Translations under genes and position numbers: made by a program
Shown here: positions 4,221 to 63,225 of the stretch, one piece after another
How positions within the stretch are numbered: the first letter of the stretch is position 1
Layout: each line of letters begins with the position of its first letter
IMG/VR virus record: IMGVR_UViG_3300001528_000136
Coordinates: 122,906-186,905 of that record
Origin: a virus
Lineage: Duplodnaviria; Heunggongvirae; Uroviricota; Caudoviricetes
Reading direction: 5' to 3' (one strand)
DNA length: 64,000 bases
The notes under the pieces: generated by a model
Seen by the model: the letters and a program-made list of their open reading frames with translations, nothing else
The model's database searches: none
Told to the model about the DNA's origin: nothing

Positions 4221-4719
4221 TTTTTAATATTTCAAAATAACCATGCCAAGTTAAATTACTTTTAATATCTATTATTTGATTATCTTGTGTACTCCATTGA
4301 TGAGCTTTAACTACATAATTAAGAGATTTATCATTATATAACATATCTAACATAGCTTCCCAAGTAGCTATATTTCGGGTACTAGATAATTCATCATCCT
4401 TATGTACATAGTTAAATATCCACATTATTTGCCATTTTCTAAAGAAAGTAAATATAATATATGGGTCCCATTCATGTTCTACATGTTCATACTTCCATTT
4501 CCATCCTAAAGAACTCATTCTAAAATCAAATATTTTATTATATTTGTTCTTAGATATAGGCATTCCAAAGAACCATGTTACTTTACCACAATAGAAATGA
4601 ATATAAGGGATATTGAACCACTTTCTACACTTCCACCATATATAGAATGGATTTCTGTATTCATTCCATAGTTTGGTGAAAGGTGCATCATATTTAAACC
4701 AATTAATTATTTTATTCAT
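4198..4719 (-). CDS. hypothetical Trp-rich protein (173 aa)
   Basis: Intact ORF with unusual W/F/Y content. No motif recognised. Confidence 0.3.
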   Translation of the reverse strand: MNKIINWFKYDAPFTKLWNEYRNPFYIWWKCRKWFNIPYIHFYCGKVTWFFGMPISKNKYNKIFDFRMSSLGWKWKYEHVEHEWDPYIIFTFFRKWQIMWIFNYVHKDDELSSTRNIATWEAMLDMLYNDKSLNYVVKAHQWSTQDNQIIDIKSNLTWHGYFEILKNEDFSNK

Positions 4720-9055: not shown

Positions 9056-9370
9056 TTACTTACGATATTTTTTAACAATATTCCACAAGTCATCTATAGT
9101 TTCAGTAGGTATTACATTATTATTCTCGTCGTAAGCTTGATTATCGGCTTCTCCTTCAAACAATGTAGGCTTCTCATAGAGCCACCAATTAATCCAATCT
9201 ATACCATCATCATCAAATAAATTAGTATAGGTAAGTTCGGACATTCTGGCAGAAATATCTCCTAATGGTAGATTAAATAAATCAATACCGAAGTCATACC
9301 ATCTATCTAATTCCTTATTAAAATCTAATACTGTCTTAATGACTTTAATAAATTGTTCTCTAGTAATCAT
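9056..9370 (-). CDS. hypothetical protein (104 aa)
   Basis: Intact ORF. No motif recognised. Confidence 0.3.
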   Translation of the reverse strand: MITREQFIKVIKTVLDFNKELDRWYDFGIDLFNLPLGDISARMSELTYTNLFDDDGIDWINWWLYEKPTLFEGEADNQAYDENNNVIPTETIDDLWNIVKKYRK

Positions 9371-9443
9371 ATTATTCCTATTTAAATAGGTTAATTAGTT
9401 AATCTAATTAATTAGGTAATCTATTAAATAAAAATTCTGGAGT

Positions 9444-10387: not shown

Positions 10388-10876
10388 CTATTTCCAAAAC
10401 TTACTAGTTACGTCTTTAAGTTGATTATTAACTACTGAATACATTCTCTGATTAGTATTGGGATTATTTAGTGGTCCTTTTTCTTCTATATAAGCTCCAA
10501 GCTTGATATAATCAAAATTAATAAGGTCAATGTCTTTACTTAATTCTTGCCTTCCACTATACCAACCAACTTTTATATCATATAAATCTTTAACAGCTTC
10601 AGCTAGTGTATTAACATATTTTGGTCCAGAATCTCCTCCCATAAAACCAACACATGTAATACCCTCATTTTTATCTATTAAAGCATATAAAGTTTCTAAA
10701 TATAGTGGTTCACCTATATCATTAACTAAATAAGAACTGTGACATCCAGAACACTTGCATGGACAATTAGATATATTAATACAAAGTGATATTTCATCAG
10801 GAAATTCACTAAATGTCACCATTGTATCTACATATTTAAGCATCCCAAATCTCTTTAAGTTCTTCCCATATAGCAT
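10388..10876 (-). CDS. nrdG: anaerobic ribonucleotide reductase activating protein (radical SAM)
   Basis: Cys cluster CINISNCPCKCSGCHSSY resembles the NrdG radical-SAM/Fe-S motif. It is 162 aa and lies in the same operon as nrdD. Confidence 0.65.
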   Translation of the reverse strand: MLYGKNLKRFGMLKYVDTMVTFSEFPDEISLCINISNCPCKCSGCHSSYLVNDIGEPLYLETLYALIDKNEGITCVGFMGGDSGPKYVNTLAEAVKDLYDIKVGWYSGRQELSKDIDLINFDYIKLGAYIEEKGPLNNPNTNQRMYSVVNNQLKDVTSKFWK

Positions 10877-20780: not shown

Positions 20781-21800
20781 TTAAAGAGAATATCCATTAT
20801 AGCCAATTTGATAAGCTGCATATCGTAGAAGTGTTCTAAACTCATGCAGACCCTGAGCACACTCTTGTTTAGTCATAGCTCTTACCTTAGTATAATATTG
20901 AGGTATAGTTGACACTACTAAATAATTAGCTTTCATTGTAGGATTCTCAATTCCATACTCTTTAATTACATACAAACGTAATAGAAAGAGATATATAGCC
21001 AGTTCTCGACTGTAATGGAACCTATTAATATTACTATCTATCTCAGATACTACTTTTCCAATTGTCTTAATGTCATTAACTACTATAGTATCTGACTCTA
21101 GGTCAATAGTAAAATTATCAAGCTTAGCTTTTAAGTGTATTATAAAGGACTTACCGTTTGGACACTCAGCTTGCACATCTAATAAAAGAGCATTCTCATT
21201 AAGAGATATTGGAGCATCAATAAGTCCAGAAGGATGTAATAATTCTTGAACTTGTGGATTATTAGTTAGGGCTTCAACACAATTAAATACAGTATCTCTG
21301 CTTTTATCATCTAAATAGATAATTTCTTTATCAGAACTACTAACTAATTGTTTTCTTGCTTTCCAATATGGAATACATTGTTCATTAACTTGCTTTATTC
21401 TATCAGCATTAAGTTTTCCTTTGTAATAGTTCACCTTATTAGAAGCTTCTGTAATATCAGAAGTTCTAACTGGGTGTTGTAACCATACAGGATATAACTC
21501 ATCTGCCATAGCTCCCATCTTAGCCGTAGGTTTACCTAGCGAAGGAGCTAATTCAAAGCATTCTGGTTGCAAGCAAAGTTCATGTACGGCTGAACCTATA
21601 ATAAGGCTCGAAATAAAACCTTCATCTTTAAATCCTACAAAGAATGATTCAGGAGAACCACCTTGTCTTGGATTAAGAAGTCCTAATCTTGAATTACTTA
21701 TATATCCACCGTATTTAGGTGAGAAATACTCAACATCACTTATCTTAACTAGTTGCAGAGTGTCAAGAAGTGGTGTAAGTTTAATTTCACTAAGTTGCAT
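20781..21800 (-). CDS. hypothetical protein (339 aa)
   Basis: Intact ORF. Confidence 0.35.
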   Translation of the reverse strand: MQLSEIKLTPLLDTLQLVKISDVEYFSPKYGGYISNSRLGLLNPRQGGSPESFFVGFKDEGFISSLIIGSAVHELCLQPECFELAPSLGKPTAKMGAMADELYPVWLQHPVRTSDITEASNKVNYYKGKLNADRIKQVNEQCIPYWKARKQLVSSSDKEIIYLDDKSRDTVFNCVEALTNNPQVQELLHPSGLIDAPISLNENALLLDVQAECPNGKSFIIHLKAKLDNFTIDLESDTIVVNDIKTIGKVVSEIDSNINRFHYSRELAIYLFLLRLYVIKEYGIENPTMKANYLVVSTIPQYYTKVRAMTKQECAQGLHEFRTLLRYAAYQIGYNGYSL

Positions 21801-22314
21801 ATCCTAGAATATCTAACTCATTTAAATAGGCATCTAAAATCTCATCGTAATCTAAGTGATAAATGCGAAATTCACATTTCACATTCTGATTGTGTGGTCT
21901 ATCAATAAGAAGAGCAGGTAATCCGCTCTTTATTGCTTTAGCTACATTACTATAACTATCATCAATAAGAACATCACACCTGCCCTTAATTATGTCAGCT
22001 TTATTACCATGTTGATAATACATCTGATAAATAGGCTTTATTGGTAAACCATGTTTTAATAAAGAGTTTCGAGTATAACTCTTTGGTATAATGCGTTTAG
22101 TTGCATAGATATAAGGCTCGAAGTTAGGTTTTTCTAATAACTCTAGATTCTCCCAGAACTCTTTATCATGTTGCAACTTACGTACATTCTTAGTTATTAT
22201 GCCTTGATTGGTGAAATCACTGTTAGGAAATCTCTCTTTGTAAGCTCCCCACCAGTCTAATAGAGTGTCATCCAGGTCAAAGGCACATCTAAGATTCATA
22301 TTCCTCAAGTTCAT
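21790..22314 (-). CDS. HAD-family phosphatase, likely a 5'(3')-deoxyribonucleotidase
   Basis: N-terminal FDLDDTLLDW (DxDxT HAD motif I). 174 aa. Confidence 0.5.
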   Translation of the reverse strand: MNLRNMNLRCAFDLDDTLLDWWGAYKERFPNSDFTNQGIITKNVRKLQHDKEFWENLELLEKPNFEPYIYATKRIIPKSYTRNSLLKHGLPIKPIYQMYYQHGNKADIIKGRCDVLIDDSYSNVAKAIKSGLPALLIDRPHNQNVKCEFRIYHLDYDEILDAYLNELDILGYAT

Positions 22315-40294: not shown

Positions 40295-40463
40295 ATCTTA
40301 TTCCCAAATAAGCAGCTATTATAGTATTAACTATAGGACAAATAATAAGAAACCATAGTAAACAACTATCTGGAACCTTTCTTTTATCACATCTATCAAC
40401 TATGAAACAAATGCTAGCTAACCATGTTATAATAAGAAAAACCCATAATATAATACTAGTCAT
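40248..40463 (-). CDS. small membrane protein (71 aa)
   Basis: Two hydrophobic helices. Confidence 0.3.
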   Translation of the reverse strand: MTSIILWVFLIITWLASICFIVDRCDKRKVPDSCLLWFLIICPIVNTIIAAYLGIRYGNWKESLKVLFSND

Positions 40464-41631
40464 AAATAGTTCCTGCTTCTATTATATTAGAATCTTCACT
40501 CATTCCTAGATAAACATGGTCTATGGGTAAATCCCATAACATAAGACTTTTTATAAAAGCTTGCTTAAATAAGGACTTAGGTGGCAAACAATTGTTATGA
40601 ATAGGAATATTATCATCTTTGATGCAATCCCAATGTGTGACTACTATATTGAATTTAAGATTATACTTTTCATTGTAATTATCAAGTCTATGTCTATCTA
40701 TAACTCTACCAAATAGTGGAAAATCAAAAGCGCCTCTCTTAAATACTCCTTGTACTCCATCATCACTATTAGAGGGTTCATCTAAAGTAAAGTATTTAGT
40801 TAAATCACATTTGTCATTAAATTCCCATCCATTACCATGTCTAGTTAGATAGGGTCTCATAACTAAATAGACCTCCATAGGATTCTTAAAGTTAGATTCA
40901 GGAATACCATTAAGACCTGTTTTACTAGGAGTGCAATGAGGCATAAATCCACAATCCATATCTAATAAAAGACCTTGTGAACCTTCCCATATTACAGTAT
41001 CAAAATCATAACTAAGTCTTTGGTCATTAACTGGACTCCATGATACTATTTTAAATGTATCTTCTTTAGTGCGCAAAAAGTCACAAGCTTTTATAAAGAG
41101 TTCTTCTAAAGACTGGTCTTTACCAAATTTATAATATTCTCTAATATCTTCCAAATATGTTATAGGATAAGTTATAAGGTCTCGAACATTATAAAAACTC
41201 CATTCATTAGAAAGATTCTGGTATCTCTCATAAGTATTGTAAATACCTTTGCCACATGTACCATCCTTATGTATCTTTTCATTAAGAGAGTTAGCTAGGA
41301 CATCATAAGGTGAAATTATTCTACACTCACTATTAATATACAGAGGTGGAACTTCTACTCCTTCTTTAATTAGCGTTTCGTACTCATTATAGATACATAT
41401 AGGGTCTATAAATACATTCTTATTTAAATAGGTTGGAATACCAAGTAGTACACCAGAACCCCAAGAACTACAAATATGAGACTTACCACTATAAACCACC
41501 CTATGACCTGCCTGGGGACCCCCACTAAAGCGATGGACGATAGGTCTTCTACTGTTTTGGCACAGCCATTGAACAGTATTCCCTTTACCAGAGTCACCAA
41601 AGAATGCATCAATTACTACTTTGTGTTGCAT
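40456..41631 (-). CDS. adenylosuccinate synthetase family protein (PurA/PurZ-like)
   Basis: N-terminal P-loop VVIDAFFGDSGKGNTVQW (PurA QWGDEGKGK-like). GTCGKGIYNTYERY (PurA GTTxxGIGPAY-like). 391 aa. Confidence 0.65.
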   Translation of the reverse strand: MQHKVVIDAFFGDSGKGNTVQWLCQNSRRPIVHRFSGGPQAGHRVVYSGKSHICSSWGSGVLLGIPTYLNKNVFIDPICIYNEYETLIKEGVEVPPLYINSECRIISPYDVLANSLNEKIHKDGTCGKGIYNTYERYQNLSNEWSFYNVRDLITYPITYLEDIREYYKFGKDQSLEELFIKACDFLRTKEDTFKIVSWSPVNDQRLSYDFDTVIWEGSQGLLLDMDCGFMPHCTPSKTGLNGIPESNFKNPMEVYLVMRPYLTRHGNGWEFNDKCDLTKYFTLDEPSNSDDGVQGVFKRGAFDFPLFGRVIDRHRLDNYNEKYNLKFNIVVTHWDCIKDDNIPIHNNCLPPKSLFKQAFIKSLMLWDLPIDHVYLGMSEDSNIIEAGTIYD

Positions 41632-44859: not shown

Positions 44860-47334
44860 TCAATTAACAAGTTTCTTACACCAATACCATAGTTCTCTAA
44901 TAACAGGAACTGCCGCAGTAACTCCCACTATCTTCAACCATGTCATAATGTCAAGAGGTTCTGTTCTAAATACATCACCACCAAATTGAACTATAAGTAC
45001 TTGACCTATAAATATAACTAAGCAAATACCTATAAATGCTGGATTTTTAAATAGACCATTGAATATGCTTCTATCCTGATTAAATACTCTAGCATTAAAT
45101 AGATTCCAGAATTGAAGCATTACAAAGATGGTAAAGAACTCAGTAAGTGAACAGATATTACTAATTAATAAGTATAGTAGAATACCAGTATAGATAAGTC
45201 CTACACCAAGAATCTCTGTCCACATTGGTTTAGTTATAATGAATGCTTTAGGGTCTCTAGGACTTTCTGACATTACAGCATCATTAGCTGGTTCAGTAGC
45301 TAAAGCAAGAGCCGCAAATGTATCCATAATTAGATTTACCCATAGCATCTGAGTTACAGTAAATGGTAAATCTACTCCTACAAATGGTCCTACACAAGCA
45401 ATAAGTATAGCTACAACATTGACAGTAAGCTGGAACAAGATAAAGTGTTGAATATTCTTATATAGACTTCTGCCCCACTTTACTCCTAAGATAATAGAAG
45501 GAAAAGAATTGTCTAACAAAATAACATCTGCTGCATTCTTAGCTATGTCAGTACCATTATTCATAGCTATACCTACCTCAGCTTGATTAAGAGCTGCTGA
45601 ATCATTACTACCATCTCCCACACTAGCAACAACCTCGCCCATTTGTTGGAATCGCTTAACTAATTCCTGTTTATCTTCAGGTCTAGTTCTAGCAAATACA
45701 TCTGTCTTAGCTAAGTTAGACATAGTTTGTCCAACTATATCATTTCCTAACATATAATTAGGAGTTTGAGATATATTTGCATCTTTAGCTATAGAACATG
45801 CAGTTTCTGGATTATCACCTGTTACTATCTTGACTTTGATTCCTGCGTTTCTAGCTACTTTAATTGCATCAGGTACATTAGTCCTAACAGGGTCTTCAAT
45901 AGCTACATAGCCGTCCCATATGAACTCATTAAGGGTATTTATATCTTTTGACACCTTATGAGCAAAGGCTATACAACGGCGACCTAATTTCTGTTGTTCA
46001 GCTACATTAGATATACCAATAGAATCTTTACAATATTTAGCTATAATTTCTGGGGCGCCCTTAATAAATATACGAGTTTCATTATCAAAATTAACAGCGG
46101 TAATCATATATTTATTTTTACTATTAAAGTCTACTCTATTAACTATAGAATATTCCTTTCTAATAGTATCAATGTCAGTTTCATCAAGGTCTGCCCATTT
46201 AAGACATGCTCCTTCAGTTGGATTTCCTATTGTATTACCATCTTTATCAAGACATGCAGTAGAGTTAAGAACAATATTAAAGTGTGTATTTTCATTAACT
46301 CCTTCTTGATATACTACTTTCATCTTATTCTCTGTTAGGGTTCCCGTTTTATCAGTAAGAATAAGAGTAGTAGAACCAAGTGTTTCACAAGCGTGCATCT
46401 TTCTAATTAGGTTATTAGACTTAGCCATTCTCTTCATAGAATATGCAAGAGCTAATGTTACAGCCATAGGTAAACCTTCAGGAACAGCTACTACAATAAG
46501 AGCTACAGCAATCATTAAGAATTGTAAACAATCATTTACAATACCAATTACTTCTTTACCTACATAGCCTTGTTCTATAAAGATATATCTAACTAATAGA
46601 GATATAATCAGAATAGCAGCAGCACTAAATGCTATCTTATTAATTAGACTAGCTAGACCATTTAATTGCTTATTAAGAGGAGTTTCTACATCAGTAATAG
46701 AAGAAGCTTCTCTTGCAGTCTTGCCAATCTCAGTTTCATCACCTATTGCAATCACTTCACAAGTACATGTACCTTCCGATACTATAGTACTCTTATAAAT
46801 ACAGTTAGTAGGATAAGTGCCATTAGCTTTATCATAATCATATTTAGATACTGGAACACTCTCACCTGTCAAAGAGGATTCATCTACTTTAAGATTCATA
46901 TATTCCCTAACTATGCAATCAGCAGGAATCTCTTCACCAGCACTAAGTATTACTATATCACCTACTACTAAGGCTCTTCTAGGTACTTCTAAAATATTAT
47001 CATCTCTTCTTACTTTAACTAGAGTATCATCACTACTAGTTAGGAGTAAGTCAAACTTCTTAGAAGCTGACCAAGTATTCCAGAATCCTAAACCTACTGC
47101 AATAGCTATGGCTGCTATAATACCAATAGGTTCTGAATACTCCGTTTTTATTATACCTATAACTAAAGAGATACATGCTGCTACTAACAAAATAACTATA
47201 AGAGGGTCTTTAAAACCGTCAAATAGCATTTTATACCAAGGATCTCTCTTAGGAGGTGTAAGTACATTATAACCGAAAGAAGATTGAAGAGCCTGTACTT
47301 CTGAACCACTTAATCCTTTACTTATATCTGTCAT
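44860..47334 (-). CDS. P2-type (SERCA/PMCA-like, probably Ca2+) cation-transporting P-type ATPase
   Basis: LTGESVPV (TGES actuator). PEGLPMAVTLALAYSMKRMAK (PEGLP, M4). ILTDKTGTLTENKM (DKTGTLT phosphorylation site). VGDGSNDSAALNQAEVGIAM (GDGxND). 824 aa with about 8-10 TM helices. Confidence 0.85.
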   Translation of the reverse strand: MTDISKGLSGSEVQALQSSFGYNVLTPPKRDPWYKMLFDGFKDPLIVILLVAACISLVIGIIKTEYSEPIGIIAAIAIAVGLGFWNTWSASKKFDLLLTSSDDTLVKVRRDDNILEVPRRALVVGDIVILSAGEEIPADCIVREYMNLKVDESSLTGESVPVSKYDYDKANGTYPTNCIYKSTIVSEGTCTCEVIAIGDETEIGKTAREASSITDVETPLNKQLNGLASLINKIAFSAAAILIISLLVRYIFIEQGYVGKEVIGIVNDCLQFLMIAVALIVVAVPEGLPMAVTLALAYSMKRMAKSNNLIRKMHACETLGSTTLILTDKTGTLTENKMKVVYQEGVNENTHFNIVLNSTACLDKDGNTIGNPTEGACLKWADLDETDIDTIRKEYSIVNRVDFNSKNKYMITAVNFDNETRIFIKGAPEIIAKYCKDSIGISNVAEQQKLGRRCIAFAHKVSKDINTLNEFIWDGYVAIEDPVRTNVPDAIKVARNAGIKVKIVTGDNPETACSIAKDANISQTPNYMLGNDIVGQTMSNLAKTDVFARTRPEDKQELVKRFQQMGEVVASVGDGSNDSAALNQAEVGIAMNNGTDIAKNAADVILLDNSFPSIILGVKWGRSLYKNIQHFILFQLTVNVVAILIACVGPFVGVDLPFTVTQMLWVNLIMDTFAALALATEPANDAVMSESPRDPKAFIITKPMWTEILGVGLIYTGILLYLLISNICSLTEFFTIFVMLQFWNLFNARVFNQDRSIFNGLFKNPAFIGICLVIFIGQVLIVQFGGDVFRTEPLDIMTWLKIVGVTAAVPVIRELWYWCKKLVN

Positions 47335-47353
47335 TGTAATATATCCTATTTAA

Positions 47354-58521: not shown

Positions 58522-58914
58522 ATTTTTTTAATTATTTAAGTTAATAAATAAAATAAGGAAACACACTAAAATAGTGCATTTCCTCTTAATAAAATTCTAA
58601 CTAAATAGAGTTACTGAAACCTAGTATTTCTAGTATATCAAAGACTAATACTTCTGAGTATATCCGCAGTACTTATCACATTGTACTCTGTGATTTACCT
58701 CCTCTAATATTGACCATAAGCCAACCCTCCGAGCCAGTACATTTTTTAAGCCCACCTCCTGTCAAGATATACCCAATATCTTAATATTATTAATGTCAAA
58801 AATAAAAGGAGCCTATCTTCTCAGACAAGCTCCTCAATGCAATTAAGTGTATCTCGCTAGATACAACTCTAAACGTATTCTATAATTTTTCAACATGAAT
58901 CTTTGTTTAATTAG

Positions 58915-58987
58915 AAAGTACAACAAGACTCGAACTTGTATCTAAGGACTAAAGGTCCTTTGCTCTAACCAATTGAGCTATGTACTC
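58915..58987 (-). tRNA. tRNA-Lys-like (anticodon UUU) with an unusual anticodon loop (C at position 33, or a 6-bp stem with a 5-nt loop)
   Basis: Acceptor GAGTACA/TGTACTT. D-arm GCTC-AATTGGTTA-GAGC. Anticodon region AAGGA-CCTTTAG-TCCTT. T-arm ACAAG-TTCGAGT-CTTGT. Confidence 0.4.
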
Positions 58988-59147: not shown

Positions 59148-59570
59148 TTAATTATGTTTATTGGGTTTAAATAAGAATAGTTGAATTATATGAAAGAACA
59201 CAATAGAGAAAAATAATACACAATATACTCGTATATTACACTCTTCATAGGAAATATGTAATGAATGTGCAATATTAATTAAATCATTCATGCACAGAGT
59301 AAATGGGTCTTTAACTTCTCCATAGTGTTTCCAAAACATATCAGTTATACCTATATAAAAAATAAGTAAGCTGATATTTAAGGATACTCTACATCTTCCC
59401 AAAAATGTTTTAATTGTACTATATCGTAAAGATAATAAAGCACTCATAATACATATTATAGGACAAGCATAGATACATATGTAAACACTAGTCTCTTTAT
59501 AAGACCAATCAAATAGAAGCCCTATTAAATAGAGACATCCACATAAGAACATAAAAATTAATTTAAGCAT
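59148..59570 (-). CDS. integral membrane protein (140 aa, about 4 TM), possible lysis-cassette component
   Basis: Hydrophobic helices throughout. Adjacent to the TAG-rich peptidoglycan-binding gene. Confidence 0.35.
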   Translation of the reverse strand: MLKLIFMFLCGCLYLIGLLFDWSYKETSVYICIYACPIICIMSALLSLRYSTIKTFLGRCRVSLNISLLIFYIGITDMFWKHYGEVKDPFTLCMNDLINIAHSLHISYEECNIRVYCVLFFSIVFFHIIQLFLFKPNKHN

Positions 59571-59716
59571 TTTTTAAATAGATTTAATAATGAAGTAAAT
59601 ACAAGCATTACTATAAATAGAAATGCAATAACAAAAATCCATGAATAATGGATGTACTCAGGAGCACCTACATAGATATTCCCTTTCTCTAAGATTAAAT
59701 CAATTAATTGAATCAT
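59558..59716 (-). CDS. small single-TM protein (52 aa), holin-like by size and position
   Basis: MIQLIDLILEKGNIYVGAPEYIHYSWIFVIAFLFIVMLVFTSLLNLFKKCLN. ATG at 59716, immediately after the stop of the upstream gene. Assigned by size and context only. Confidence 0.3.
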   Translation of the reverse strand: MIQLIDLILEKGNIYVGAPEYIHYSWIFVIAFLFIVMLVFTSLLNLFKKCLN

Positions 59717-59719
59717 ATA

Positions 59720-61015
59720 TTAAAATTTTATTCCAGTTACAACTTTCTTAGCTCCTAACAGAGCATTTGAAGAAAATGGTCCAAAACCATAATCCCATAC
59801 ATCATATGTTTTACCATTGTTTCCATTTAAGTCTGTAATAATACTAAAATTACCATGTTGAGCATAAGGGTCTCCTCCAGATACAGAGAATATAATATGC
59901 TTACCGTCTTTTGATAACTTAACATTATCACTTTTATTTAAATTGCCAATATTTTTCTTAACATAATCTCTAGCCCAAGCTTGTTCGGCAGCTCTTGCTT
60001 TAGGGTCTGTAAATGTATAAGTAGAATCACCTTCATTAGTTACATATCCAAAATCAGTAGACCAAGTGTTATACTTCTATGGTTGATTTCCATGAAGTAA
60101 ATTCTGATCCATTCTACCTCTAATCTTAAATTGTCTGGATTTCATGTCTCTTCCTCCTGGTCCCCATTTAGGTTCTTCCTATTTAATAATATTCCACAAG
60201 CTATCTGCTGTAGTATAATTATTCTTATCATTTAAATCTAAATCAGCAAACTCCTATGAAGCTTTGCCAGCCTTAGAAGACCCTGTAATTCCTTTAACAA
60301 ATTTAGTACCAAATCCGTATATTCCTCCTATACCTACATCATTTCCATCAATCTTCACGTGTGCATTTAATCCTTTACTATCTAAAAATTTATTAACTGC
60401 CTATGTATCCTTAGAGTTATCATAACCAAAAGGAAACATATTATTTAAAGTTGATGAAACCATACCTCCTAATCCTTTAGATACTTCTCTAGGGTCAACT
60501 TTTAAATTTTTATTCTTTCCTAAATTATATAATACATTGTTGTCTATAGCATCTTGCTATGCCCTCTTCTTCTTAACTTGATAATCTTGCCAAGCTTTTT
60601 CACTTTGCTAGCCCCAATCTCCATCAACAGCTATTTTATAACCATTTTTCACTAATTCTTGTTGTTTAGCTGTAGCACCTGTTATATCATAACCTGCACC
60701 ATGTTTAGCTAACAATTTAGAGTTATAGTGCGATTGTTTCTATCTATATTGCTTAGCATCTTTATCAGCCTTAGAACTCATCTATTTAATATTACTCATT
60801 TTCTAATTAGCCCATTCCTGATTTCTTTGATTCTAACCAGTAATAGCTAATCCTAATGTACTAGATGCAAACTAATTGGATTTCTAAGGAGTTCTCTATT
60901 TAACCCTTTGTTTAGAATGTCTTATGTCATCTAAAACAATCTAAGTTCCCATACCTGCAACATCCTAAGTGTAGGCATTCTAAGCCTACAGTCTTTTTAC
61001 TAATTCACTTGCCAT
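59720..61015 (-). CDS. TAG-recoded gene (432 codons, 17 in-frame TAG). It encodes a protein with a PG_binding_1-like peptidoglycan-binding motif and is a putative late/lysis protein.
   Basis: ATG at 61015-61013. TAA at 59722-59720. Checked codon by codon on the minus strand: 17 TAG (at + 60077, 60179, 60254, 60401, 60557, 60608, 60740, 60782, 60803, 60833, 60872, 60884, 60896, 60941, 60965, 60980, 60986) and zero TAA/TGA in frame. The translated segment ...KLLAKHGAGYDITGATAKQQELVKNGYKIAVDGDWGxQSEKAWQDYQ... matches the PG-binding signature vDGxfGxxTxxAvxxFQ. Confidence 0.7.
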
Positions 61016-61155
61016 AAATAATTTATCAGTTAATAAATAAGTTATCTAATTAATTATAATCTATTAACTAATATATAAATAAAAAAAACAAATGCAACTA
61101 TTTTCTCAAACCATTACATTCTAGACTCACAATAGGATATTACAAGAATTGTAGA

Positions 61156-61220
61156 GGTCTAAGAGAGACTCGAACTCTCAGATATTCCTAACTAAATAAG
61201 ATTAGTTAATTATTTAGACC
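61156..61220 (-). ncRNA. degenerate tRNA-like element (65 nt) with acceptor and T-arm but no D-arm
   Basis: Acceptor GGTCTAA/TTAGACC. T-arm GAGAG-TTCGAGT-CTCTC. Central hairpin TAACTAA-TCTTAT-TTAGTTA with a 6-nt loop. Confidence 0.25.
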
Positions 61221-62333
61221 AACCACCTCATAGAGGATTAAAAATACTATGAATAAGAGCGTCTTCTCACACATGGCTGAAAAGTATCTTACAAATTAGA
61301 GTGTAACTAAATAGTATTAACTAAATAGATTACGTAAGATAAATTTGTGAGGCACCAACGAGTATATTTAATTAGAGTAACTTCCACCGCTCATAGTTGC
61401 TCCCGTATTAGACGAAACTCCAGATAAATAGTTATTAGCTAGCATCTATTCAATGAAATTAAAGGGTTTGAACCTCTGTTTCTCTTATTCTATACATTAT
61501 TAAATAAATACCTACTTGTATCTCAATTTATTTCATAACTAATTTAAGCACATGCTTATTTCATTATTACTTTAAATATATGATAATGTCTCTTATTAAT
61601 TCTCTTCCCTAATTAATAGAAAGGAGTGTGCACAATATATTCAGAGACTAAATTCCGCAATCTCCCATTTACAGCTGATAGAGAGATTTATAAGAACCAA
61701 ATACTTCCTTTATAAGGAAAGTGAGTAAATATTTAATAATGTATAACTAGTATTTTATGATTCTAGTATTATAAAATTCTAACAGTATTTATATATTCTA
61801 ACAGTATCTATATATTCTATTACCACTAAATAGTGGAGCTAGAGGGTACTGCCCCCTCGTCTTACATATTCGCATCAAAACATTCTTACAGCTTAGGTTT
61901 TAAAGACTATCCTTGTCTAGTAACAAATAAACCTTTAAAAATATGAATTTGCACTTTTCTGTTCCTAAGTAAGTGCTACTCGGTTTCTCAGGCTACTATA
62001 GCAACTGGAGAAACAGAAGAATTATTTACTCTTTCGCCTTTTATTGTTTTGTCGTATTTCCGACTGTCTTTGCTGTGTTTTTTATCTCCTATGCAATCAA
62101 ATGCTAGTTTAGCCCCGTATTTCTTTTATTAAATAAAACTACCTATTTTCACAAACCAGTAGTTTTTTAACATATTGTGTATTACGATGATAAAAATTAT
62201 TAATATTAAAAAGAGCATCAATCTTCACAGACTAATACTTTATAAATGTTTCAAAATAATATTCAATTTAATCACTTATCTTCACAGACTAGCAATTATA
62301 TAAACAATTTATACCAATATGGTACAGAATGAG

Positions 62334-62418: not shown

Positions 62419-62500
62419 TTATTTTTATAAATAAACTACTCTATCTTCACAGACTAAGTAGTTTAACCATTATGTACAAAAAACGAGTTAAATATAAGTG

Positions 62501-62575
62501 TGATTCCTATGAGATTTGAACTCATGCCCCTCAGATTAAAAATCTAATGCTCTAAACCAACTGAGCTAAGGAATC
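62501..62575 (-). tRNA. tRNA-Lys (anticodon UUU)
   Basis: Acceptor GATTCCT/AGGAATC. D-arm GCTC-AGTTGGTTTA-GAGC. Anticodon stem TTAGA/TCTGA with loop TTTTTAA. T-arm ATGAG-TTCAAAT-CTCAT. Confidence 0.6.
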
Positions 62576-62859: not shown

Positions 62860-63225
62860 TTATAATTGTTCTAGTACTTTCTTAGCTAAATAAGATGATA
62901 TTTCTGTACTGTATTTACCAGAAGCACCATCAGACATAACTAAAATATACTTATCAGTATCTTTAGGATTCTTAGTTAATGACATTATATAATATCTATT
63001 AACTAGAAAACCTTTATCAACTTTAATAAAGTTCACCAAATACTTAGACACTTCTTTCATAGAAGATAAGAATGTAAACTTAGCACCCGAAGCTGTTTGT
63101 ATAGATACATATTTATCAGATGCTTCCACACTAATTATATCCCTAATTAAGATTTGTCTATATTCTGTTGCATTCTTAATAGCTAAGAATGTATCAGAAT
63201 CTAACATTATAGTAGATATTTCCAT
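62860..63225 (-). CDS. stand-alone LytTR-family DNA-binding protein
   Basis: ...YRQILIRDIISVEASDKYVSIQTASGAKFTFLSSMKEVSKYL..FIKVDKGFLVNRYYIMSL...YILVMSDGASGKYSTEIS matches the LytTR domain pattern (dIlyiEa...v.t....y.....l..le..L....F.rvhRs.iVN...I). Confidence 0.55.
   Translation of the reverse strand: MEISTIMLDSDTFLAIKNATEYRQILIRDIISVEASDKYVSIQTASGAKFTFLSSMKEVSKYLVNFIKVDKGFLVNRYYIMSLTKNPKDTDKYILVMSDGASGKYSTEISSYLAKKVLEQL

Follow-up and report, generated by a model that had tools for sequence, protein, structure and literature searches.

Here we describe a putative lysis cassette in a 64,000-nucleotide (nt) stretch of DNA from a Caudoviricetes gut phage (IMG/VR record IMGVR_UViG_3300001528_000136, positions 122,906 to 186,905 of that record), the whole of which is referred to below as the window. 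The cassette comprises a gene of 431 sense codons with 17 in-frame TAG codons, a gene for a 52-amino acid (aa) protein with a single transmembrane (TM) segment, and a gene for a 140-aa protein with four such segments. Codon comparisons with homologous genes indicate that TAG is decoded as Gln in the large gene, the product of which would combine a wall-binding segment resembling PG_binding_1 with a C-terminal domain, termed type A, of no recognisable family or fold. We consider it probable that the three genes form a lysis module of the holin–endolysin type that is gated by recoding and has an orphan-fold lysin domain. An initial annotation, made from the DNA letters and their reading frames, had proposed these genes; their positions on the minus strand, as well as the 431-codon frame with internal TAG codons and a TAA stop, were confirmed. 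The features of the locus, with the basis of each assignment, are as follows.

59720..61015, minus strand: large gene, putative endolysin (modular wall-targeting protein); 431 sense codons, TAA at 59720-59722
60716..61015, minus strand: N-terminal region of the large protein, ~100 residues; full-length model of a homologue and TAG positions
60578..60664, minus strand: PG_binding_1-like segment, residues 118-146; sub-threshold Pfam match and PHROG match
59723..60484, minus strand: C-terminal type-A domain, residues ~178-431; profile and model
59558..59716, minus strand: 52-aa single-TM protein; open reading frame (ORF) and hydropathy
59148..59570, minus strand: 140-aa Cys-rich four-TM protein, candidate holin; ORF, hydropathy and charge profile
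58914..58987, minus strand: tRNA-Lys(UUU); ARAGORN, and Rfam at 65 bits
58806..58835, minus strand: terminator-like GC-rich hairpin followed by a T-run; consensus scan, pattern match only

The cassette genes are closely packed or overlapping and are followed by the tRNA gene and the terminator-like hairpin, an arrangement which we counted as support for a lysis module. The ATG of the 52-aa ORF lies 3 nt past the TAA of the large gene; the adjacency noted in the initial annotation thus stands, its spacing of 4 nt having been counted from the last base of the stop codon. The 140-aa ORF overlaps the 52-aa ORF by 13 nt. The tRNA-Lys(UUU) gene, located directly 3' of the cassette, probably shares its transcript, and the hairpin at 58806..58835 is likely the 3' end of the transcription unit.

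Decoding of TAG in the large gene

All 17 in-frame stop codons of the large gene are TAG (codons 10, 12, 17, 25, 40, 44, 48, 61, 71, 78, 92, 136, 153, 205, 254, 279 and 313), 11 of them falling within the first 92 codons and one (codon 136) inside the PG_binding_1-like segment; the remaining Gln codons of the gene are 14 CAA and 2 CAG. The probability that a random frame of 431 codons is free of TAA and TGA was estimated to be ~1e-12, taking ~6% TAA plus TGA per codon at the composition of the window. Homologous genes from metagenomes whose DNA was read (C-terminal types A, B, C, E and F, see below) carry 7-27 in-frame TAGs each, at partly different positions. When three homologous genes were compared, CAA or CAG was found opposite TAG in 25 of the 60 non-TAG pairings and was the commonest partner at the DNA level. 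Residue Q295, which is Gln in 50 of 50 family members, is encoded by CAA in the window and by TAG in the homologous locus L004, while Q313, which is Gln in 46 of 50 members, is encoded by TAG in the window and by CAG in L004. Since the codons were compared at the DNA level, this evidence is independent of the translation of database proteins, and it indicates that TAG is decoded as Gln in the large gene. The ratio of nonsynonymous to synonymous substitution rates (dN/dS) between the large gene and that of L004 was ~0.22, indicating that the gene is under purifying selection.

The large gene is the sole gene with an internal TAG in the window. The 68 non-overlapping standard-code ORFs of the window contain 418 CAA/CAG codons and no TAG used as Gln, and eight of the 68 end in TAG, e.g. 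10388..10876, 21790..22314 and 40456..41631 (all on the minus strand), an adenylosuccinate-synthase-like gene being among those so terminated. Where longer frames open up elsewhere in the window on reading TAG as sense, their TAGs precede the start or coincide with the natural end. One 64-kb stretch therefore holds two uses of TAG, as the terminator of eight ORFs and, 17 times over, as a sense codon in the putative lysis gene.

Preferential stop-codon recoding of lysis genes has already been published, with heavily recoded lysis genes lying among standard-code early genes (Borges et al., bioRxiv 10.1101/2021.08.26.457843), and a comparable pattern involving TGA has been described in zeta crAss-like phages (PMC12386605). 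The lone recoded lysis gene of the window fits the pattern of Borges et al. In the lysis regions of its relatives, too, in-frame TAGs were confined to lysis-related genes. In the closest relative (L005, 1633..1824) the 52-aa gene stops at TAG where its counterpart in the window stops at TAA; recoding there would add 11 residues. A perfect 7-bp hairpin (TGTAGGC-N7-GCCTACA) was observed at 60970..60990 in the window, where it covers codons 9-16 and spans the first two TAGs (10 and 12). A scan for terminators flagged it on the opposite strand, and it could influence early translation or be a matter of chance.

Architecture of the large protein and its membrane-protein partners

The large protein contains no Cys, as the initial annotation had stated and as its translation confirmed. 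Its N-terminal ~100 residues are predicted, with low confidence, to be helical in the full-length model of a homologue, which was poor overall (predicted local distance difference test, pLDDT, 55); neither a TM segment nor a signal peptide was detected in this region. Residues 118-146 matched the Pfam family PG_binding_1 at 13.2 bits as against a cut-off of 23, the segment reading ...GYKIAVDGDWGqQSEKAW..., and the PHROG endolysin profile phrog_2649 matched residues 66-150 (E=2e-4), PHROG endolysin profiles hitting this part of the protein only. The earlier designation as a peptidoglycan-binding protein thus falls short of the Pfam cut-off in the window protein itself, but the equivalent segment exceeds it in the homologues P0025 (26.1 bits) and P0036 (25.0 bits); therefore, the wall-binding assignment holds at the level of the family.

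We found 25 homologues of the large gene, which have the N-terminal part of ~150 residues in common and differ in their C-terminal domains. Type A was found in the window gene, P0001-8, P0012, P0013 and P0015, type B in P0009-11 and P0014, type C in P0016, type D in P0020 and P0024, and type E in P0025, the N-terminal region being conserved across types A, B and C. A profile search with the N-terminal module returned mostly fragments ending at TAG; its one useful result was a sixth type, in locus L021, which carries a YkuD L,D-transpeptidase-fold domain (27.7 bits as against a cut-off of 23.4, obtained on a sequence stitched across a frameshift). The N-terminal module is joined to at least six different C-terminal domains. 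The swapping of these domains, with YkuD as one of them, suggests that the C-terminal position is a slot for wall-acting domains. Types D and E were also considered as CHAP/NlpC-like peptidases on account of their Cys/His motifs; Pfam and PDB sequence searches did not confirm this and we make no such claim. The YkuD-type sibling in L021 (6001..7048) is split by the frameshift into two overlapping ORFs, which could reflect a sequencing error, a pseudogene or programmed frameshifting, and is followed by a lipoprotein gene with a HEFGH zinc-protease motif.

The type-A domain measures 240 aa and is rare: a search of 1.84 billion cluster representatives with the domain profile yielded only 56 clusters at E<=1e-3. 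A domain-only model of a homologue, computed from a 38-sequence alignment, reached a pLDDT of 94.8 and a predicted TM-score (pTM) of 0.91, and consists of two parts, the N-terminal one made of six helices and the second an alpha+beta part in which a helix is packed on a four- to five-stranded sheet. No fold neighbour of the model was found in PDB or BFVD, the best Foldseek match against BFVD having E=0.07 and a TM-score below 0.2. Residues conserved throughout the family are K238, D260, Q295, R299, R301, D303, Q313 (the TAG codon in the window), D337, D405, W407 and D408. Distant type-A members are fused to LysM (P0046 and P0056) or to PG_binding_1, the latter above the Pfam cut-off in P0036 and below it in P0047, P0053 and P0063, and in a 335-aa protein of locus L011 an N-terminal signal/anchor stands directly before the type-A domain, replacing the N-terminal region and the binding module. 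These fusions to LysM, PG_binding_1 and a signal/anchor imply that the type-A domain would act outside the cytoplasm, on or near the cell wall.

As regards the two small proteins, described in the initial annotation as having one TM segment and as polytopic, respectively, hydropathy analysis gave one and four hydrophobic segments. The 140-aa protein, for which 23 homologues were found, is encoded by a gene that has no TAG codon and ends in TAA; the third of its four segments is weaker than the others. In an alignment of 25 sequences of this four-TM family, TM2 and TM3 are joined by a positively charged loop and TM3 and TM4 by a conserved acidic one of ~35 residues, and the C-tail is basic; an N-in/C-in topology obeying the positive-inside rule is predicted for the 140-aa protein. 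Four cysteines (C10, C32, C40 and C93) are invariant in the family. Comparison of 17 members with Pfam gave no meaningful match, only one member scoring on Cds6_C (E=0.019). The dN/dS of the 140-aa gene against the closest homologous locus was ~0.12. The 52-aa protein, also encoded without TAG, has its TM segment at residues 26-44, with ~24 residues before and ~7 after it, an acidic N-terminus and a basic KK-containing C-tail; the N-terminus is probably outside and the C-tail inside, and the protein is perhaps a candidate holin partner or antiholin. Counterparts of this small TM protein are encoded at the equivalent position in L015 (82 aa, two TM segments), L016 (75 aa), L005 and L011, and none is present in L019, because of which we regard the 52-aa gene as accessory.

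The hallmarks of holins, namely a small membrane protein with one or more TM segments, a charged cytoplasmic tail (predicted) and an adjoining lysin gene, are present at the locus, and a holin-type topology is plausible for the four-TM protein. The initial annotation had left the choice between a holin-like and a spanin-like protein. A lipobox is absent from both small proteins, as is a long, periplasm-spanning domain, and the 140-aa protein is polytopic; the spanin role is therefore unsupported, whereas the holin-like alternative agrees with the topology of the four-TM protein. A spanin-like pair was not seen in the window, and a lipoprotein-like 52-aa ORF occurs only in the relative L008. 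A comparison of the window with its closest relative gave amino acid identities of 70% for the putative lysin, 92% for the 52-aa protein and 89% for the 140-aa protein; the lysin either evolves faster than its neighbours or has been exchanged as a module.

A four-TM gene was found downstream of the type-A gene in all six loci in which downstream DNA was visible (the window, L005, L011, L015, L016 and L019). The pairing persists down to ~27% identity between the type-A domains, and includes a 938-aa type-A protein with 27 TAGs. The two genes are immediate neighbours in two of these loci (L005 and L019); in the other four (the window, L011, L015 and L016) they are separated by a small TM gene related to that of the 52-aa protein. 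In L001 a type-B gene is followed by that of a 236-aa polytopic protein, the C-terminal half of which aligned with the four-TM family (hhalign probability 69%, E=4.6e-5) and is probably homologous to it; the family is thus tied to type A and possibly to type B too.

Genes for wall hydrolases were found near the locus in several relatives: GH25 in L008, TseH-like and Peptidase_C92 in L009, YkuD_2 and TseH-like in L011, C92 in L013, glucosaminidase in L016, and TseH-like, Peptidase_C92 and SLT in L019. The 64-kb window was searched for homologues of the GH25, TseH-like, C92, YkuD_2, SLT and glucosaminidase proteins and yielded none; the type-A gene is therefore the only visible candidate lysin there. 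The gene order which had led the initial annotation to propose a lysis cassette is conserved in the distant relatives L005, L011, L015 and L016, L019 being without the small gene; this and the canonical peptidoglycan hydrolase genes found at the same locus in relatives lend support to that proposal. In L011 (5001..6224), a 149-aa four-TM gene ends in a TAG that is in frame with a downstream TseH-like ORF; reading this TAG as Gln would fuse the four-TM protein to the hydrolase-like domain in a product of 407 aa.

The proposed lysis module and its alternatives

In the lysis module that we favour, the 431-aa effector would accumulate in the cytoplasm, since it has no signal peptide, and would be completed only once TAG is read as Gln late in infection; with 11 TAGs in the first 92 codons, the translational block should be tight. 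The four-TM protein would permeabilise the inner membrane, possibly with the assistance of the 52-aa single-TM protein, upon which the released effector would bind murein through its PG_binding_1-like segment and the orphan-fold 240-aa C-terminal domain would attack the cell wall. Of the features expected of an endolysin, linkage to holin-type membrane proteins and lysis genes was found as a triad or pair in six loci, and a recognisable glycosidase, lytic transglycosylase, amidase or peptidase domain was not found in the large protein. Since the type-A domain matches neither a catalytic family nor a known fold, we purely infer its enzymatic activity and thereby the muralytic activity of the large protein; a holin role of the four-TM protein, late timing and a source of suppressor tRNA would complete the model.

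Several observations weigh against this explanation. No match to the type-A domain was obtained in Pfam, NCBIfam, PHROG or PDB sequences, which, together with the absence of a fold neighbour, extends to database searches what the initial annotation had concluded by eye, i.e. that the catalytic domain is not recognisable. The model of the domain was built from that of the homologue P0004, not from the window protein. The type-A family has no conserved Glu, His, Cys or Ser, and in this it is unlike most lysozymes, amidases and peptidases. The two membrane proteins and the 17 family members gave no significant match in Pfam, PHROGs or NCBIfam, and none to a holin family. Strict pairing with one family of membrane proteins is unusual for holins, which are normally non-specific, and may point to a more specific partnership. 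Canonical hydrolases stand beside the type-A protein in three distant loci (L011, L016 and L019), so type A need not be 'the' endolysin. Finally, a tRNA with the anticodon CUA was absent from the nine tRNAs detected by ARAGORN in the window; the genomes of relatives measure ~175-190 kb, and a suppressor tRNA may therefore lie outside it.

A further-reaching proposal, which we put forward tentatively and hold to be somewhat doubtful, is that type A is the founder of a new structural class of phage wall-lytic enzyme, with an orphan alpha/beta fold and an Asp/Arg/Gln active site (D260, Q295, R301, D303, D337 and D408) devoid of Glu, His, Cys and Ser, co-evolving with an obligate, hitherto undescribed family of Cys-rich four-TM holins.

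The alternative that survives best, though we judge it unlikely, is a non-enzymatic lysis effector acting in the periplasm, the type-A domain of which does not cleave peptidoglycan. Such a protein might activate autolysins of the host or block the synthesis of the wall; it might also stand in for spanins by destabilising the envelope or the outer membrane. Its dedicated four-TM partner would be an exporter, anchor or regulator. An effector of this kind would account for the orphan fold without conserved Glu, His, Cys or Ser, for the strict co-occurrence with one specific four-TM family and for the want of a spanin-like pair in the window, and the canonical hydrolases that adjoin type A in L011, L016 and L019 would make an extra hydrolase dispensable. 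However, there is no other hydrolase gene near the cassette in the window, L005 and L015, the type-A domain takes the position that YkuD occupies in the sibling architecture, and catalytic centres made of Asp alone exist among lytic transglycosylases, e.g. those of the MltA type.

It is improbable that the large protein is instead a virion-associated peptidoglycan-degrading or ejection protein that pierces the wall at infection, its TAGs marking a late structural gene. Structural genes are typically recoded, as are lysis genes. An N-terminus that is long and helical, together with Q/N-rich relatives of several domains, the largest of which (P0053) measures 938 aa, recalls some internal or ejected virion proteins. 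Yet neither the 64-kb window nor the 6-10 kb around the homologues yielded a structural gene. Small membrane proteins and hydrolases, either soluble or exported, are the constant neighbours, and the L011 variant has a Sec-type signal/anchor, which cannot be reconciled with packaging into a virion. The initial annotation had named a tail-fibre or virion structural fold as the outcome that would speak against lysis; no such fold emerged, the homologue-domain model with its pLDDT of 94.8 being without a neighbour in PDB or BFVD.

That the large gene is a pseudogene or chance frame with inactivating TAG stops, as pieces of at most 52 codons in the standard code and the eight other ORFs ending in TAG might suggest, is effectively refuted by the interchange of TAG with CAA/CAG among homologues that each have 7-27 TAGs, in part at other positions, and by the dN/dS of ~0.22, and is further countered by 431 codons without TAA or TGA, a closest homologue at 70% amino acid identity and a very confident domain model.

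Surroundings of the cassette and relation to known systems

The window is a phage segment of 30% G+C with nearly all genes on the minus strand, and its gene content is one of replication and nucleotide metabolism (anaerobic ribonucleotide reductase, ligases, helicases, a polymerase fragment and a P-type ATPase). The last of these, at 44860..47349 (minus strand), is an 830-aa cation-transporting ATPase with a DKTGTLT motif and an unusual auxiliary gene for a phage to encode. Nucleotide and protein searches of a phage collection found no relative of the large gene, the sole match being that of a tRNA-Met at the edge of the window to crAss-like phages.

In the anticodon loop of the tRNA-Lys(UUU) at 58914..58987 (CCUUUAG), position 33 is occupied by C, where U is near-universal; a second, canonical tRNA-Lys(UUU) is present at 62500-62575. 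A tRNA-like element at 61156..61235 (minus strand), 140 nt upstream of the putative lysis gene, combines a good T-arm (GAGAG TTCGAGT CTCTC) with an anticodon loop of 8 nt, and was called 'Lys|Stop (ctta)'. It was detected by ARAGORN at a relaxed threshold only, being sub-threshold by default, and is absent from the Rfam matches; it is a probable decayed tRNA. Two 'tRNA-Pyl(cta)' calls at 4401-4486 and 9324-9417, also made at the relaxed threshold, were rejected, as each falls within a minus-strand ORF but on the plus strand, and neither is supported by Rfam.

Upstream of the large gene, a stretch of ~1.3 kb (61016-62333) is without ORFs, and relatives have homing-endonuclease genes there. The decamer TATTTAGTTA occurs in 16 copies in the window as against 1.5 expected, a number reached in 0 of 100 shuffles. 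Three of the copies are just upstream of the putative lysis gene (61189-61198, 61304-61313 and 61318-61327), two of them forming a tandem with a spacing of 14 bp, and 13 further sites are found in the window; the decamer may serve the phage as a regulatory element or promoter. The DNA upstream of the large gene showed no conservation with L001 or L004, because of which no shared promoter could be defined, and a sigma-70 promoter scan gave fewer matches than in shuffled sequence. Upstream of the cassette, a gene at 62860..63225 (minus strand) encodes a stand-alone 121-aa LytTR DNA-binding protein (Pfam 48 bits), and a LytTR gene is found at the equivalent position in L001-L004, L006 and L021. 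The holin-like lrgAB genes of staphylococci are controlled by LytTR regulators, and by analogy the LytTR protein is a candidate regulator of the cassette.

Recoded lysis cassettes are known from gut phages, where crAss-like phages decode TAG as Gln and the Agate and zeta crAss-like phages decode TGA as Trp (bioRxiv 10.1101/2021.08.26.457843; PMC12386605). The present cassette resembles these in having a heavily recoded lysis effector alongside standard-code replication genes, a genome of low G+C, tRNA arrays flanking the cassette and, in its relatives, clusters of several lysins. It differs from them in being an isolated recoded island in a 64-kb standard-code region where TAG is also a true stop, and in that no suppressor tRNA is visible in the window. 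In crAss-like phages, the families reported as preferentially recoded are a lysozyme-type amidase and a spanin (bioRxiv 10.1101/2021.08.26.457843), whereas the recoded gene of the window bears an unknown domain and its membrane proteins are unrecoded. With one recoded lysis gene amid 64 kb of standard code, the locus is a clean test case for the code-switch timer: if the published timer hypothesis is true, changing the 17 TAGs to CAG should result in premature lysis.

Holins and holin-like proteins with four TM segments include the CidA/LrgA family and holins of the Phage_holin_4 type. The 140-aa protein shares with them its size, four hydrophobic segments, a predicted basic cytoplasmic C-tail and an adjoining wall-targeting gene. 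It is set apart from them by the lack of a holin match in Pfam among 17 members, by the invariant C10, C32, C40 and C93, by the acidic periplasmic loop of ~35 aa (predicted), and by the specific tie of its family to type-A, and possibly type-B, proteins. A likeness to endolysins with a signal-arrest-release (SAR) sequence or signal peptide is confined to the L011 variant, in which a hydrophobic signal/anchor precedes the type-A domain and SAR behaviour is putative; the window protein is without such a segment.

Modular endolysins with an N-terminal PG_binding_1 and a C-terminal catalytic domain are known from phages infecting Gram-negative bacteria, e.g. gp144 of phiKZ (KZ144) and gp188 of EL. 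As in KZ144 and EL gp188, the wall-binding module of the window protein is N-terminal to the effector domain, and there is no signal peptide, so that dependence on a membrane-lesion protein is to be expected; genes for small membrane proteins do adjoin. Unlike them, the window protein has an extra helical region of ~100 aa before a binding module that is below the Pfam cut-off, and its C-terminal domain falls outside the lytic transglycosylase, lysozyme, amidase and peptidase families and outside the solved folds. The catalytic domains of endolysins belong to a few well-known folds. The candidate fold described here is rare, has a high-confidence model, occurs joined to three different modules for wall targeting or export and has a membrane partner of its own; if truly that of a lysin, it would add a class to the endolysin catalogue and to the enzybiotic toolbox for Bacteroidales. 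Thus, recoded lysis genes and lysins with an N-terminal peptidoglycan-binding module are already known, and what is new in this cassette is a structurally orphan effector domain together with its conserved, unclassified four-TM partner.

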